Below the pieces are notes generated by a model, which saw only the letters and a list, made by a program, of their open reading frames with translations, made no database searches and was not told where the DNA came from. The position numbers and the translations under genes were made by a program. Shown here piece after piece: positions 21,403-46,355 of a DNA stretch of 49,974 nucleotides. The stretch's first letter is position 1. Every line of letters begins with the position of its first letter. The DNA comes from Candidatus Latescibacterota bacterium (GTDB taxonomy: Bacteria; JAAXHH01). The stretch covers positions 1-49,974 of the forward strand of contig JAJECR010000159.1 of assembly GCA_022821935.1 (NCBI GenBank), written 5' to 3'.

Positions 21403-21676
21403 CGGTCGTGCTAGATGGGGAGTTAGCGGTGCCCTGTAACCCGCAACCCGCTACAGCGGGATCGAATTCCCATCCCGAGGATCGTCCTTGCTTCGCCGGT
21501 ATGTGTTGCATCCGGTATTGAAGGTCAGGTCCTGCGCAACGTGACAACGCCCAACCCCGTCAGGACCGGAAGGTAGCAGCGGTAAGCGCCTGAATCGTGT
21601 GCCGCGGGAGCGCCTGGCCGGAGCCGGCGGCACGGATGCCCCGAAACGAGGAGATTCGAGGGTGGGTGCACGACCG
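21403..21676 (+). ncRNA. ffs: signal recognition particle RNA, large (Bacillus-type, Alu-domain-containing) form
   Basis: Terminal helix CGGTCGTGC / GCACGACCG. The Alu-domain-like 5' part, GGGGAGTTAGCGGTGCCCTGTAACCCGCAACCCGCTACAGCGGGATCGAATTCCC, closely parallels B. subtilis scRNA as I recall it. The S-domain core GTCAGGACCGGAAGGTAGCAGCGGTAAG and its 3' partner GTGTGCCGCGGGAGCGCCTGGCC are present. It sits directly upstream of dnaX, as in Bacillus. Confidence 0.88.
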
Positions 21677-41336: not shown

Positions 41337-41366
41337 TTGTCAACATGCAGGCCGTGTCGATATCAT
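41337..41366 (+). promoter_or_regulatory. promoter candidate: TTGTCA-N18-TATCAT
   Basis: The hexamers were read directly, 65 nt upstream of the ATG at 41432. Confidence 0.3.
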
Positions 41367-41431: not shown

Positions 41432-42007
41432 ATGAAAACCCGAAACCACCTGATTACCGCACTGATCCTGGCCGGGGTCCTGTTGTTGCCTACGCAGGCC
41501 GGCGCCCAACTCGGCGCCAGCGCCGGCTTCAATCCGGAACCGCTCAGCCTTGTGGATTTCAAGAAGGCGTTCAACGGCGATACAGGAAAGGTCCGCCTCG
41601 TCGTGATGTTCTCTCCTACCTGAGGCCACTGCATAAGCGGCGCCGGGGCGGTGCAGCAAGAGATATTGAAGAAGTTTCCCTCCGACGACCTCCGGGTCTA
41701 CGTGGTCTGGCAGCGGATACTCAGGAACGATTCGGTCAATGCGGCTCGGACCGCGGCCGTCAATGTTTTCAACGACAAGCGTGTCCGCCAGACATGGGAC
41801 CCCGCGAACGCGCTGGGATTCTGGTACAAGCAGTCGGGGGACTTGGAACACAAGGACCCGATGGTCTGGGACGCCTACTTCCTCTACGGTGCGGATGCCG
41901 AGTGGAAGGACGCGCCTACGGGGCTGATCGACGCCGGTTACACCGTGTGGAATATGAAAGACAGGCTCTTGAAATCGGTGGCAACGACGATGGAGGCCGT
42001 TGACTGA
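41432..42007 (+). CDS. exported thioredoxin-fold protein with an in-frame TGA at 41621-41623, read as selenocysteine (SPT-U-GHC redox motif)
   Basis: The track ORFs 41432..41623 and 41651..42007 share one frame and are separated only by a TGA. There is no other stop between 41624 and 41651. The protein has a signal peptide MKTRNHLITALILAGVLLLPTQAGA. The TGA sits where SPTCxxC thioredoxin/glutaredoxin-like proteins have the first Cys. Confidence 0.6.
41624..41660 (+). promoter_or_regulatory. candidate bacterial SECIS hairpin just 3' of the TGA
   Basis: By-eye fold: lower stem CUGCA (41629-41633) pairs with UGCAG (41652-41656). A short GC upper stem (CGC/GCG) closes a G-rich apical loop about 22-26 nt after the UGA. 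This was not energy-minimised. Confidence 0.35.
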
Positions 42008-42060: not shown

Positions 42061-42092
42061 GGGGCGGTTCGTCAAGGACCGCCCCTTTTTTT
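42061..42092 (+). terminator. rho-independent terminator: GGGGCGGT-loop-ACCGCCCC followed by seven T
   Basis: A perfect 8-bp GC stem, a 9-nt loop and a T7 run, read directly. It lies between convergent genes. Confidence 0.85.
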
Positions 42093-43565: not shown

Positions 43566-45560
43566 CTACAGCATGAGCGGATTCGGCTTGTCGGCGTCGA
43601 TCTCCAGTTCGGCCATCGCCTCTTTCAGCTTCGAGGCCGGCAACTTGCCGTCGCGCATCAGCCCGTAGAGGGCGGACAGCGTGATGTAGCGGGCATCCAC
43701 TTCGAAGAAATCACGTAAGGCGCCGCGGCTGTCGCTGCGTCCGAATCCGTCGGCGCCGAGTGTGATCAAATGGCCCGGGAACCAGGCGGATACGGTGTCC
43801 GGCAGCGCTTTCACGTAGTCGCAGGCCGCCACGTAGGGACCCGGTATATCGGCCACGCAGGAGGTCACGTAGGGCACGCGGGGCGTTTCCTCGGGATGCA
43901 TGATGTTCCATCGCTCCACGTCCACCGCCTCGTTGTGCAGCGCCTTGTAGCTGGTGATGCTCCAGACGTCGGCGGCCACGCCGTACTTTTCTTCCAGGAT
44001 CCTGCCCGCTTTCAGCACCTCGTTCAGGATGGCGCCGCTGCCGAAGAGCTGGACGCGCAGGTCGCCGTCCTTCTTCTCCGATTCGCGGAAGCGGTACATC
44101 CCTTTCAGGATGCCCTCGCGGGTCGCCTCGGGATCGCCCGGCATGGGCGGCATGGCGTAGTTCTCGTTGTGGACGGTCAGGTAGTAGAACACGTCGTCCT
44201 GTTCTTCGTACATGCGCCGGATGCCTTCTTCGATGATCACGGCCAGTTCGTAGCCGTAGGCCGGGTCGTAGGCCAGCAGGTTCGGCACCGGGTAGGCGAG
44301 CAGATGGCTGTTGCCGTCCTGGTGCTGGAGTCCTTCGCCCGCCAGCGTGGTGCGGCCCGACGTGGCGCCGACCAGGAAGCCCTTGCAGCGCATGTCGCCC
44401 GCGGACCAGACCAGGTCGCCGACGCGTTGCAGGCCGAACATGGAATAATAGATGAAGAAGGGGATGGTGTTGATGTCGTAGGTGGCGTAAGCCGTGCCCG
44501 CGGCGATGAAGGACGACATGGCGCCGGCTTCCGAGATACCTTCCTCCAGCAGCTGGCCGTCCTTCGACTCGCGGTAGTACAGCAGCGTTTCGCTGTCCAC
44601 CGGGTCGTAAAGCTGGCCCACCGGGGAGTAGATGCCGGACTGCCGGAACAGGGCCTCCATGCCGAAGGTCCGCGCCTCGTCAGGCACGATGGGCACGACG
44701 AGGTCTCCGATCTCCTTGTCCCGCATCAGGTCCGACAGGATGTTGACGAAGGCCATGGTCGTCGACACCTGCCGGTCCGTCCCTTCGTAGTACTTGCTGT
44801 ACTTGTCCTGTTTCGGCGCGTGCAACGGCGTGAAGGTCGTCCGCCTGGAGGGCACGTAGCCGCCGAGGGCCCTGCGCCGCTCATGGAGGTACTGAATCTC
44901 CTCGCTGTCCTCGGGCGGCTTGTAGAAGGGCACTTCGGCCACGTCTTCGTCGGAAATCGGGATCCGGAAGCGGTCCCGGAAGGCGAGCAGGTCGCTGTCT
45001 TCCATCTTCTTGATCTGGTGCGTGCTGTTGGCCCCCTGACCGCTGTCGCCCAGTCCGTATCCCTTGATCGTCTTCATCAGAATGACCGTCGGCGCCCCCT
45101 CGGTTTCCACGGCCGCCTGGTAGGCGTGGTATACCTTGAGCGGATCGTGGCCGCCCCGCCGCAGATGCTGCAGCTGCGAATCGGACAGATGCTCCACCAT
45201 CTTCTTCAGATCGGGATGGACGCCGAAGAACTTGTTCCGGATGTACTCGCCGGATGCCATGCTGTACTTCTGGTACTGGCCGTCCACCGTCTCGTGCATG
45301 CGGTTCACGAGGAGCCCGTCGCCGTCCTTCTCCAGCAGCGGGTCCCAGTCGCTGCCCCAGATGCACTTGATGACGTTCCATCCCGCACCCCGGAAGATGG
45401 CCTCCAGCTCCTGGATGATCTTGTGGTTGCCCCGGACGGGACCGTCGAGCCGCTGCAGGTTGCAGTTGATTACGAAGATCAGGTTGTCGAGCTGCTCGAG
45501 GACCGGCACGGTGATGGCGCCGAGGGACTCGGGTTCATCCATCTCCCCGTCGCCCATCAT
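43566..45560 (-). CDS. aceE: pyruvate dehydrogenase E1 (homodimeric AceE type), C-terminal ~3/4 as called by the ORF track
   Basis: GDGEMDEPESLGAI...NLIFVINCNLQRLDGPVRGN is the ThDP-binding motif region. In this frame, homology continues upstream of the listed Met (ETERFKVWV) to about 45587. Confidence 0.88.
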   Translation of the reverse strand: MMGDGEMDEPESLGAITVPVLEQLDNLIFVINCNLQRLDGPVRGNHKIIQELEAIFRGAGWNVIKCIWGSDWDPLLEKDGDGLLVNRMHETVDGQYQKYSMASGEYIRNKFFGVHPDLKKMVEHLSDSQLQHLRRGGHDPLKVYHAYQAAVETEGAPTVILMKTIKGYGLGDSGQGANSTHQIKKMEDSDLLAFRDRFRIPISDEDVAEVPFYKPPEDSEEIQYLHERRRALGGYVPSRRTTFTPLHAPKQDKYSKYYEGTDRQVSTTMAFVNILSDLMRDKEIGDLVVPIVPDEARTFGMEALFRQSGIYSPVGQLYDPVDSETLLYYRESKDGQLLEEGISEAGAMSSFIAAGTAYATYDINTIPFFIYYSMFGLQRVGDLVWSAGDMRCKGFLVGATSGRTTLAGEGLQHQDGNSHLLAYPVPNLLAYDPAYGYELAVIIEEGIRRMYEEQDDVFYYLTVHNENYAMPPMPGDPEATREGILKGMYRFRESEKKDGDLRVQLFGSGAILNEVLKAGRILEEKYGVAADVWSITSYKALHNEAVDVERWNIMHPEETPRVPYVTSCVADIPGPYVAACDYVKALPDTVSAWFPGHLITLGADGFGRSDSRGALRDFFEVDARYITLSALYGLMRDGKLPASKLKEAMAELEIDADKPNPLML

Positions 45561-46237
45561 GACCCAGACCTTGAATCGCTCGGTTTCTTGATCCCCCGGT
45601 TCTCCAGGTATTTCATGAAACGGGCCTGGTAGATGCCGGTAATGGCGCCTAAGCCCATGGATACCGTGGGGAACTCCCAGAAGTCCGGCATCAGCCAGGG
45701 ATGGGGATAGGACGACAGGCCGGGCGGATTCACCTCGTGGCGGAAGTTCTTGAGCTGCTCCTCGGAGATCCGCCCTTCCAGGTAGGCCCGCGCGTAGATA
45801 CCCGGCGCGGCGTGTCCCTGGACGAAGAGGAGGTCGCCCTCGTGGCTGCCGTTCCGGTTGCGGAAGAAGTGGTTGAAGCCCACCTCGTAAAGCGTTGCCG
45901 AGGAAGCGAAAGTGGAGATGTGCCCGCCGATGGAGCCGTCGGCCCGGTTGGCACGGACCACCATGGCCAGCGCGTTCCAGCGCACGATGTTCTTGATGCG
46001 CCGTTCCAGGTCGCGGTCGCCGGGATAGGGTTCCTGCAGTTCGACGGGTATGGTGTTTACGTAGGGGGTGTTGGCGGAGAAGGGCAGGCGTACGCCGGAC
46101 TCGGCGGCACGGGATTCCAGGGCCGCGAGAATGCGGCGGGTCCGTTCCGGGTCGCCCTGCGAAATGACATACTCAATCGATTCGAGCCACTCGTGGAGTT
46201 CCAGCGATGCTACATCGGGTTCCACGTCCGTTGTCAT
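45557..46237 (-). CDS. aceE: pyruvate dehydrogenase E1 (AceE), N-terminal fragment ending at a frameshift-induced stop
   Basis: Start chosen at MTTDVEPD. IVRWNALAMVVRAN, HISTFASSATLYEVGFNHFF, VQGHAAPGIYARAYLEGR, PTVSMGLGAI..YQARFMKYLENRGIK, then out-of-frame residues and TGA. Confidence 0.85.
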   Translation of the reverse strand: MTTDVEPDVASLELHEWLESIEYVISQGDPERTRRILAALESRAAESGVRLPFSANTPYVNTIPVELQEPYPGDRDLERRIKNIVRWNALAMVVRANRADGSIGGHISTFASSATLYEVGFNHFFRNRNGSHEGDLLFVQGHAAPGIYARAYLEGRISEEQLKNFRHEVNPPGLSSYPHPWLMPDFWEFPTVSMGLGAITGIYQARFMKYLENRGIKKPSDSRSGS

Positions 46238-46355
46238 CAAGCTTCCCCGGGGTGCGCCGCGCGTCGGCATTCCGCTCTTTTCCCATTCGAAAACATCGAC
46301 ACAAAATAGGGCTGTGGCACCCCTTCTGTCAATCATTATATTGATTTGCGACCGC

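Follow-up and report, generated by a model that had tools for sequence, protein, structure and literature searches.

We analyzed a candidate selenoprotein gene located in a stretch of 49,974 nucleotides of DNA, the whole of which is referred to as the window. Two open reading frames, 41432-41623 (63 aa) and 41651-42007 (118 aa), share one frame and are separated by a TGA (41621-41623) and the nine codons after it, none of which is a stop. This layout had been described in an earlier, sequence-only reading, and we obtained it again upon re-derivation: the read-through product is a protein of 191 residues that contains VRLVVMFSPT-U-GHC-ISGAGAVQQEILKK. The same single-frame layout recurs in orthologues. 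The following features were assigned to the locus:

41337..41366, plus strand: candidate sigma-70-like promoter TTGTCA-18-TATCAT in the spacer between ychF and the gene, a weak match to the consensus only
41432..42007, plus strand: complete gene of the putative selenoprotein, 191 codons (190 standard residues and Sec64), with ATG start and stop TGA at 42005-42007
41432..41506, plus strand: putative signal peptide, residues 1-25, with a putative AGA/Q cleavage site, assigned by inspection by eye
41621..41623, plus strand: in-frame TGA as the putative selenocysteine codon, residue 64, assigned from aligned-codon conservation
41621..41632, plus strand: motif U-G-H-C with a predicted redox/metal-binding role; the resolving Cys67 is encoded at 41630-41632
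41637..41657, plus strand: bSECIS-type stem-loop with a core 6-bp stem (41640-41645/41649-41654) and the apical loop GGG (41646-41648)
42061..42092, plus strand: intrinsic terminator 3' of the full-length ORF, a 10-pair stem (42061-42085), 8 pairs of which are G-C, followed by T7

The N-terminus, MKTRNHLITALILAGVLLLPTQAGA/QLG, resembles a Sec-type signal peptide when inspected by eye, and the orthologues L001 and L004 have an equivalent hydrophobic N-terminus with an A-x-A/Q site, in agreement with the signal peptide that had been proposed before. The strong terminator is likewise where it had been reported, after the full-length ORF. The candidate promoter has 10 of 12 hexamer matches, and two such sites were found where 0.4 would be expected from shuffled sequences. 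The neighbours of the gene in the window are an M20 peptidase gene, ychF and the genes for PDH E2/E1. We also scanned the whole window for in-frame TGA codons with a coding signal on both sides; the scan returned only 41621-41623 and one ordinary gene junction, and thus no further TGA-interrupted genes, which served as a proxy for selenocysteine use. It should be noted that the PDH E1 gene (aceE) is split in the window. We considered it as a second recoding event and rejected this, since a simple 1-nt deletion, seen against every relative, accounts for the split.

The aligned codon was compared across 130 loci with homologous genes, which come from sponge MAGs of the Gemmatimonadota type and from Acidobacteriota, Chloroflexota and Rubrobacteraceae, with identity down to ~30%. 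It is TGA in 123 loci and TGC or TGT in the remaining 7 (loci with TGC or TGT by name: L042-L044, L047, L049, L053, L101, L118). The TGA is kept in orthologues with 57-94% identity and conserved synteny, of which the one on OZ241838.1 is 94% identical, and also in homologues with 29-48% identity from Chloroflexota, Acidobacteriota and Rubrobacteraceae. Like OZ241838.1, the complete chromosomes OZ241920.1, OY843748.1 and OX638340.1 have a close orthologue. Protein conservation runs across the TGA in the 123 loci: the nine codons between it and GTG 41651 are conserved as protein, including the Cys at +3, which is invariant in all aligned members. The Cys forms are contiguous single proteins, and full-length SPT-C-P-x-C proteins are numerous in a library of 1.84 billion proteins, in which the family comprises 1,356 representative clusters at 50% identity. 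The question of whether homologues extend past the TGA and have Cys or Sec in this column is thus answered in the affirmative, as TGA is found there in 123 loci and Cys in 7 loci and in many database Cys forms. The same codon recurs in genomes and metagenomes that were assembled independently of each other, in many studies and on many platforms. As had been anticipated, automated annotation misses the gene: in the databases it is either split into two fragments, which NCBI names "hypothetical protein", or translated with code 4 or 25, which places W or G at the codon.

A hairpin in the SECIS window had also been proposed, starting a few nucleotides after the TGA. This hairpin is conserved and covarying; its position had to be corrected, as the core stem begins 16 nt after the TGA and the apical GGG loop lies at 22 nt. 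Single-sequence folding of the regions 41621-41690 and 41621-41662 (42-70 nt) showed no advantage over dinucleotide shuffles, with z values of +0.5 to +0.9. Therefore, single-sequence energy was dropped as evidence and covariation was used instead. In 79 non-redundant sequences, 97.3% of the hairpin cells are paired, with three compensatory pairs, the changes being located at pairs 21/33, 24/30 and 25/29. Pairing reaches 96-97% in the hairpin versus 28-56% in slid controls, and none of 500 shuffles attained the score of the hairpin. The consensus hairpin was predicted independently by RNAalifold, and two extra pairs, 41637-41638 with 41656-41657, are present in the clade of the window. Apical loops are always G[G/U]N, and synonymous entropy is 0.2-0.4 bits in the hairpin versus 1.5-1.9 bits elsewhere. 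The Cys forms are without the hairpin, retaining just 1-5 of the 6 pairs. The significance of this putative element is purely comparative.

According to published criteria, a bSECIS has a loop of 3-9 nt with G in the first two loop positions, a stem of 4-16 bp, a distance of 16-37 nt from the UGA and a minimum free energy of at most -7.5 kcal/mol (PMC13188914, section 5). The hairpin agrees with all four, having the 3-nt loop GGG, a stem of 6-8 bp, a spacing of 22 nt and a folding energy of -10.5 kcal/mol (z = -1.2 for the 21-nt hairpin). Its consensus, GGCGCC-NGK-NGGGTGC, is unusually conserved across phyla and fixes the encoded peptide as G-A-(G/R)-(A/W)-V: one clade has G-A-G-A-V and the other G-A-R-W-V, and a compensatory C-G/G-C swap links both. 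Similar to the E. coli fdhF-type SECIS and the bSECIS consensus, the stem-loop follows closely after the UGA within the ORF, and its loop starts with G followed by G/U; unlike the fdhF element, it has a compact 6-bp stem (6-8 bp), a triloop and no evident bulged U.

Taken as a whole, the explanation that we consider very probable is that of one gene for an exported thioredoxin-fold protein, ~165 residues in its mature form, in which the nucleophile would be the selenocysteine of SPT-U-G-H-C; the comparative sequence data strongly support decoding of 41621-41623 as selenocysteine. The readings of the TGA that compete with it can be weighed against the same data. If translation simply ended at the TGA, the locus would be either a pseudogene or a pair of small genes, coding for a secreted peptide of 63 aa and a protein of 118 aa that starts from GTG 41651. 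The gene callers of every database annotate it in this way, no Sec machinery was found locally, and the window has at least one frameshifted gene, aceE. However, the TGA is kept in the 123 loci, which belong to at least three phyla, while flanking codons have diverged to ~30% identity; the codons between TGA and GTG are under protein-level conservation with the invariant Cys; the Cys forms are contiguous; the predicted fold requires both halves; and a covarying hairpin would not persist in a pseudogene. The ordinary stop and the pseudogene appear effectively refuted by these comparisons, and we regard them as highly improbable. It is still harder to believe that the TGA is a sequencing or assembly error for TGC or TGT: the assembly does carry the 1-nt aceE deletion, but that fault is an indel and not a substitution, and the identical codon is present in independent assemblies from many studies and platforms.

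A suppressor, a tRNA-Sec-like tRNA or a reassigned code might also insert one of the standard amino acids Cys, Trp or Gly at the UGA. Cys tRNAs that resemble tRNA-Sec (selC*) and possible suppressor allo-tRNAs have been described, including in Acidobacteria (PMC5389517), and some pipelines assign W or G to the codon. Conversely, genuine stops in the window are often TGA: this codon terminates 12 of 26 long ORFs and the selenoprotein gene itself, and therefore the alternative genetic codes 4 and 25 were rejected. Furthermore, homologues without the TGA always have Cys there, within a CxxC redox motif; the SelB-type bSECIS hairpin is tied to the TGA forms and lost in the Cys forms; and selC*-type decoding has been reported from other, anaerobic phyla. 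Insertion of a standard amino acid is thus an improbable alternative to selenocysteine. The earlier claim that SPT-U-GHC is a selenocysteine site in a thioredoxin fold has held up, with every refutation check that could be run favouring the selenoprotein.

No selA, selB, selD or tRNA-Sec was found in the 50-kb window or in 1.17 Mb of the window and related flanks: tblastn with E. coli SelA, SelB and SelD probes gave no match against 0.73 Mb and then 1.17 Mb, and ARAGORN detected no tRNA-Sec in the window and 39 loci. In the literature, SelA and SelB are present in the sponge Gemmatimonadetes bins 94 and 43 (PMC5649159, Table S4), Acidobacteriota are counted among the Sec users (PMC12013277), and there are reports of tRNA-Sec for Chloroflexi and Actinobacteria (PMC5389517). 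The occurrence of the family in sponge symbionts fits the reported SelA/SelB enrichment in sponge communities.

To analyze the fold, we used an AlphaFold (AF2) model of P0001, a homologue that is 57% identical to the window protein and has W at the Sec position as a result of the miscalled TGA (pLDDT 91.4, pTM 0.82). The model has an N-terminal helix with lower pLDDT at residues 5-27, a strand at 54-60, the Sec position at residue 64 and a helix at 65-79, so that UxxC is predicted to follow strand β1 and to lie at the N-terminal end of helix α1, the arrangement expected of a thioredoxin fold. The predicted fold spans both halves of the gene, with strand β1 encoded 5' and helix α1 encoded 3' of the TGA. 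Foldseek matched the model to GPx5, CcmG, ResA, DsbE/DsbF and Sco (E-values from 4e-6 to 5e-4, TM up to 0.68), with probability 1.0 to 1kng, 1su9, 3gl3, 3ios and 2p5q. Thus, structure prediction and fold search on this homologue bear out the proposed thioredoxin fold, and a fold of the CcmG/ResA/DsbE/GPx-like type is supported by the model.

At the sequence level, the U→C protein and an L010-type member were scanned against Pfam-A (2025) and NCBIfam r20 (June 2026). Pfam gave no match to the U→C protein or to Cys-form relatives even at E-values up to 10, the sole NCBIfam match was pdi_dom (E = 0.14), and the best E-value in the PDB profile search was 0.31; no thioredoxin-superfamily sequence model matched, including Redoxin, AhpC-TSA, Thioredoxin_8 and GPx. 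An HMA match is also absent for the domain itself, and the fold is not that of HMA (βαββαβ) with GMTCxxC. The prokaryotic selenoproteome comprised 119 families/subfamilies in a review of May 2026 (PMC13188914, Table 1); none of them was matched via the listed Pfam, NCBIfam or TIGRFAM models, the direct scan covering families other than those defined in CDD only. The family has a signature of its own, RL(V/I)LL(F/L)SPT-U-xx-C…DLRVY(A/V)VW…WD(A/S)Y(F/L)LY…W…P; the 'DP' that precedes the VWDAY strand in the window clade is not conserved throughout the family. We found no description of the family in the literature on mer-associated thioredoxin-like or Sec proteins. The family is so far uncatalogued and unnamed.

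Several known systems are comparable. The UxxC selenoproteins with a thioredoxin fold (Sec-thioredoxin, Prx-like thiol:disulfide oxidoreductase, thiol:disulfide interchange protein, DsbA/DsbG-like, redoxin family and SaoT; PMC13188914, Table 1) share with the window family a Sec in place of the N-terminal Cys of CxxC at the start of helix α1, the existence of Cys homologues and a bSECIS downstream in the coding region. The window family differs from them in its signature, in that it matches none of the scanned Pfam/NCBIfam models that define them, and in being overwhelmingly Sec, 123:7 in the sampled loci. CcmG/DsbE, ResA, TlpA and DsbF provide the closest solved folds (1kng, 1su9, 3gl3, 3ios) and, as predicted for the window family, are exported or membrane-anchored. 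Similar to reductases fed by CcdA/DsbD, some relatives have a DsbD_2/CcdA-like gene directly upstream or fused. The differences from the CcmG/ResA group are a sequence identity of 9-17% with no profile-level match, a predicted Sec nucleophile, the lack of a cytochrome c maturation or cytochrome oxidase context, and no ccdA neighbour in the window clade. Comparison to MerP/NmerA shows a subset of relatives in the merP slot (merR-merT-[gene]) or at the N-terminus of MerA, the usual place of NmerA; in both cases there is a two-ligand xCxxC-type site, and stand-alone forms have a signal peptide. Unlike MerP/NmerA, the family has a thioredoxin-like and not a ferredoxin-like HMA fold, one putative ligand is Se, and the window gene lies outside a mer operon. 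The family is not a member of MerP; in some relatives, its mode of working may be MerP-like.

Neighbours of the mer or ccdA type were found in none of 34 sponge-clade loci versus 6-10 of 53 informative non-sponge loci; the contigs that encode P0025, P0028 and P0029 are only 1-2 kb long and too short for context. In a subset of the non-sponge relatives, merR-merT or merR-merC is located directly upstream. Other neighbours of relatives are MerB, a DsbD_2/CcdA-like protein and a DF-family (seleno)protein. Fusions to MerA (TIGR02053 at 525 and 517 bits) and to HMA also occur; the relatives that are mer-linked or MerA-fused are L034, L036, L039, L041, L046, L083, L090, L120, L122, L128, L130 and P0080. 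Of these, L036 and L120 are acidobacterial loci with the order merR-merT-[gene], and L034 is a MerA fusion. In 10 non-sponge loci, the family member is immediately preceded by a DsbD_2-type gene, and P0119 and P0158 have it as a fusion. The window gene is without mer-operon neighbours and is not fused to MerA, and a CcdA/DsbD-type donor for its clade could be encoded elsewhere in the genome.

Because of the CcmG/ResA/DsbE-like structure and the recurrent CcdA/DsbD-type and mer neighbours or fusions, we think that members of the family act on thiophilic substrates outside the cytoplasm, either by capturing or by reducing them. The mer-linked members most likely bind Hg(II) and pass it on, in the manner of MerP/NmerA but based on selenium. 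For the sponge-clade copy, we would guess at a periplasmic protein that acts as a selenol-thiol reductant or scavenges soft metals; the functional inference for the window gene itself is a weak one. A more general role, that of a Sec-containing periplasmic thiol:disulfide reductase or peroxidase of the CcmG/ResA/TlpA or GPx type, with no metal function and with the mer links as secondary recruitments, has in our estimate somewhat less than an even chance of being correct. It agrees with the top structural matches (GPx, CcmG, ResA, DsbE/F), with the CcdA-like partners, which relatives have at least as often as mer genes, and with the exclusively housekeeping neighbours in the window clade. However, the mer links arose repeatedly and in varied architectures (merT type, merC type, merB, MerA fusion, HMA fusion), and the conserved W/D/Y/R-rich surface and the missing Redoxin, AhpC-TSA and GPx sequence-model matches argue that the family is not simply one of those enzymes. 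It is conceivable, albeit rather unlikely in our judgement, that the ancestral job of the family was Sec-based extracellular capture of Hg(II) or soft metals, as a replacement for MerP/NmerA kept reduced by a dedicated CcdA-like transporter, and that the window copy is a constitutively encoded periplasmic metal scavenger.

Representing the expression of the preferred selenoprotein as a series of steps, we propose that the UGA 41621-41623 would be recoded as Sec during translation, with the hairpin 41637-41657 recruiting SelB·GTP·Sec-tRNA(Sec) to the approaching ribosome, in the manner of bacterial SECIS elements. Translation would then run on to the TGA at 42005, and transcription would stop at the terminator 42061-42092. 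The signal peptide would presumably direct the protein across the inner membrane, where the selenol/thiol pair U64/C67 at the N-terminus of helix α1 may form a reduced, highly nucleophilic two-ligand centre.

These results point to a family of more than 1,300 clusters (50% identity) that is systematically split or given W/G in Gemmatimonadota-type sponge symbionts, Acidobacteriota, Chloroflexota and Actinomycetota. One profile, combined with the conserved SECIS (GGCGCC-NGK-NGGGTGC, 16 nt after the UGA), would mend thousands of gene calls, and the family would extend the prokaryotic selenoproteome beyond the 119 catalogued families/subfamilies. The hairpin is a clean natural case in which an RNA element determines what peptide is encoded (G-A-G-A-V versus G-A-R-W-V). 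The mer/CcdA associations of the relatives, including Sec-domain-MerA fusions, suggest a link between selenium and mercury in soil bacteria. If ancestral Hg(II) capture were true, part of environmental mercury resistance would hinge on selenium supply, and the splitting of the genes at the UGA would have hidden this selenium-dependent resistance from annotation.

The region 41432-42007 (+) translates as a single frame of 191 codons whose sole internal stop is the TGA at 41621-41623, and the product of the read-through frame is MKTRNHLITALILAGVLLLPTQAGAQLG…GKVRLVVMFSPT-*-GHCISGAGAVQQEILKK…. The sequence-only reading had treated two adjacent ORFs as halves of one frame split by this TGA, with a terminator behind the full-length ORF; both proposals were borne out. 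It had also placed a hairpin a few nucleotides after the TGA, where a bacterial SECIS (bSECIS) would sit; a hairpin of this kind is present, although its start had been stated imprecisely. The features are:

41432-41623, + strand: ORF, first half of the frame (63 aa)
41640-41654, + strand: hairpin core with the loop GGG at 41646-41648; two extra pairs lengthen the stem to 41637-41657
41651-42007, + strand: ORF, second half of the frame (118 aa)
42061-42085, + strand: 10-pair stem of a strong intrinsic terminator, followed by T7

A scan of the whole 50-kb window for in-frame TGA codons flanked on either side by sequence of high GC3 and low GC2 returned the site in this gene and the ordinary M20-peptidase/ychF junction, and nothing else. 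TGA ends 12 of the 26 clearly coding long ORFs of the window, plus the 41432-42007 gene itself; it is a normal stop elsewhere in the window. By inspection, residues 1-25 show the n-h-c arrangement of the Sec-type signal peptide that had been proposed, and the putative cleavage site, AGA|Q, is of a type kept in orthologues.

Elsewhere in the window, a full-length, large-type bacterial SRP RNA (21406-21673, +; RF01854, 172.8 bits) adjoins tRNA-Ser and tRNA-Ala genes and is the long, Alu-domain-containing form, not the short 4.5S type. The aceE gene (pyruvate dehydrogenase E1; 43566-46336, -) is broken into two frames by a 1-nt deletion at ~45573 (GATTC-AAGG, versus GATTCCAAGG in the related loci L012, L019 and L024); in this essential, otherwise conserved gene, the deletion marks either a pseudogene or a mistake in the assembly.

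The translation with Sec written as Cys was the query of a word-indexed search against 5.8 billion proteins, which gave 24 matches. Of these, 23 are fragments of 108-129 aa that begin just past the TGA, and their source MAGs carry the label Gemmatimonadota or Zixibacteria; NCBI names the family's fragments "hypothetical protein". The sole full-length match, P0001, is 57% identical, lies on an AT-rich contig and carries W at the residue in question; table 11 does not yield the listed protein from its DNA, and direct translation gives TGA at the W position. In homologous loci at 73%, 48%, 36% and 29% identity, the corresponding codon is TGA throughout; the motif of the more distant among them is LLLSPT-TGA-P-x-C. 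Two collection scans (GTDB representative genomes and JGI metagenomes) added 119 loci. Among the 130 loci with a locatable motif, the aligned codon is TGA in 123 and TGC or TGT in seven, and the homologues continue past it, as expected for a selenoprotein. TGA occurs at this codon in sponge-type Gemmatimonadota/"Latescibacterota" MAGs, Dehalococcoidia, Anaerolineales, Vicinamibacterales, Pyrinomonadaceae, other Acidobacteriota and Rubrobacteraceae. MAGs of Thermoanaerobaculia, Holophagales and other Acidobacteriota account for five of the seven Cys forms; the remaining two are on metagenome contigs without taxonomy. An exhaustive HMMER profile search (E ≤ 1e-3) put the family at 1,356 representative clusters. 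About four-fifths of the best 150 of these are post-TGA fragments, the remainder are mostly genuine SPT-C-P-x-C proteins, and a few have W or G at the site, which is TGA translated with code 4 or 25. Automated calls do miss the gene, as had been anticipated.

It should be noted that the genomic context of the Cys forms L042, L043, L044, L047 and L049 (Thermoanaerobaculia/Holophagales MAGs) is unlike that of the Sec forms: they adjoin giant NRPS-like ORFs of up to ~3,279 aa. In L049 and L042 the Cys-form domain is the C-terminal part of a larger protein, with an α/β-hydrolase-like N-terminus in L049.

The alignment of the family is gap-free from the TGA to +48 nt, and RNAalifold finds one hairpin in it (position 1 being the first base of the TGA), with positions 20-25 paired with 29-34 and the loop at 26-28. 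Among 79 non-redundant TGA-form sequences, standard pairs occupy 97.3% of cells, compared to 30-56% after a shift of the 3' partners by 1-3 columns; compensatory double changes are present at three stem pairs, and the covariation score was not reached in any of 500 shuffles. Pair 25/29 carries the deepest of these changes, which splits the two main clades: the pair is G-C in the window's clade (codons GGG GCG, Gly-Ala) and C-G in the soil clade (CGG TGG, Arg-Trp). Because this swap changes the encoded residues, the protein itself records a constraint on the RNA. Third-position entropy of four-fold codons within the stem is 0.44 bits (Gly+6), 0.24 (Ala+7) and 0.23 (Val+10), versus 1.5-1.9 bits in equally conserved four-fold codons outside it. 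In every loop the first base is G and the second is G or U (GUU 51, GGG 28, GGU 22, GGC 13, GUG 7), and TGA forms keep a mean of 5.85 of the six stem pairs, compared to 1-5 in Cys forms. The window's hairpin, at -10.5 kcal/mol and with a UGA-to-loop spacing of 22 nt, lies within every bound of the bSECIS model (loop 3-9 nt, stem 4-16 bp, G within the first two loop positions, spacing 16-37 nt, MFE -7.5 kcal/mol or lower; PMC13188914). Folded as a single sequence, the GC-rich post-TGA region is not better than its shuffles; thus, the case for the hairpin rests on the family-wide comparison.

In L024 (10190-10237) and L026, the post-motif peptide is GAGVAQQ where others have GAGAVQQ. Codons GTG GCG replace GCG GTG, and both affected stem pairs are retained, as G-U and G-C; this swap is a small natural case of the hairpin limiting the permitted amino-acid changes.

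Neither the window protein nor a soil-clade member or the Cys-form relatives had a Pfam, NCBIfam or PDB sequence match. The AlphaFold2 model of P0001, built with a 43-row family alignment (pLDDT 91.4, pTM 0.82), has the order N-terminal helix, β, α, β(54-60), [residue 64], α(65-79), β, α, β, α, β, β, α. Foldseek against the PDB places it in the thioredoxin-like superfamily (E 4e-6 to 5e-4), closest to poplar GPx5, CcmG (1kng), ResA (1su9), DsbE (3gl3, TM 0.68), DsbF (3ios) and Sco proteins. In this model, Sec64 would stand exactly at the position of the nucleophilic Cys in CxxC, in agreement with the earlier proposal. The conserved TGA, the Cys forms, the covarying hairpin and the fold support the selenoprotein interpretation, and 41432-42007 is very probably a selenocysteine-encoding gene.

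We found no tRNA-Sec in the window or the flanks of 39 related loci, and no SelA-, SelB- or SelD-like sequences in 1.17 Mb of the window plus related flanks. The literature gives indirect support for Sec use in these lineages: Slaby et al. 2017 (PMC5649159) report SelA together with SelB in most bins of sponge symbionts, and their Table S4 gives one of each for both Gemmatimonadetes bins (94 and 43); an Acidobacteriota Sec user is listed in deep-Sep (PMC12013277), and tRNA-Sec has been reported from Chloroflexi and Actinobacteria (PMC5389517).

Synteny is fixed across the 34 loci of the window's clade (tRNA-Val/Asp/Leu, M20 peptidase gene, ychF, Sec gene, convergent PDH E2 and E1), with no mer or ccdA genes within 4 kb of the gene; this indicates stable vertical inheritance and gives no hint on function. 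Outside this clade, nine loci (L036, L039, L041, L083, L090, L120, L122, L128, L130) have genes for a MerR-family regulator and a MerT-like transporter immediately upstream, MerR and MerC are upstream of L046, whose motif is U-G-H-C as in the window gene, and MerB adjoins the gene in five loci. In a Chloroflexota MAG (L034:440-2455, +) and a metagenome protein (P0080), a full MerA (TIGR02053, 525 and 517 bits versus a cutoff of 454) carries the Sec domain as an in-frame N-terminal fusion that lacks a signal peptide, in the place of the HMA-type NmerA that MerA proteins usually have. HMA fusions also occur (P0046, P0094). Two tandem Cys-form copies are present in each of P0046 (708 aa), P0063 (571 aa) and P0094 (621 aa). 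Only a minority of loci show such mer links: of 53 TGA loci outside the sponge clade that have 1.2 kb or more of upstream sequence, six have MerT or MerC and ten have any mer-like match.

A CcdA/DsbD-type membrane protein lies directly upstream in ten loci (e.g., L106:336-1112, +, with NPCG and SCxxP motifs; PF13386, 32.7 bits) and is fused at the N-termini of P0119 and P0158, an arrangement suggesting that electrons reach the protein from across the membrane by a dedicated route. In eight soil loci, the next gene downstream (e.g., L099:655-999, +, 101.8 bits) encodes a small 'YFDGCP…C' protein that matches NF049942, the DF family (seleno)protein, and a DF-like domain is fused at the C-termini of the multidomain P0046 and P0063; thus, two selenoprotein-type families travel together. 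We infer that the family provides a putative selenol-thiol centre which, in its reduced state, would act on thiophilic substrates beyond the cytoplasm, and that mer-linked members would capture Hg(II) and pass it on. Selenium-based handling of soft metals (Hg) as the core role of the family seems rather unlikely, and such a role is less likely still for the window's own copy.

Mechanistically, the gene follows the usual bacterial scheme (Sec-UGA, bSECIS inside the ORF, UxxC within a thioredoxin fold), so the kind of system is already known; the family itself appears to be undescribed. Pfam/NCBIfam scans gave no match to the models attached to the 119 prokaryotic families of the May 2026 catalogue (PMC13188914), and neither deep-Sep (PMC12013277) nor the mer-diversity survey mentions it; a catalogue entry defined solely by a CDD id, or another paper, may cover it. 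The family is notable for its size and breadth, its near-exclusive Sec usage and its unusually conserved SECIS, as well as for its associations with mer, CcdA and the DF family.
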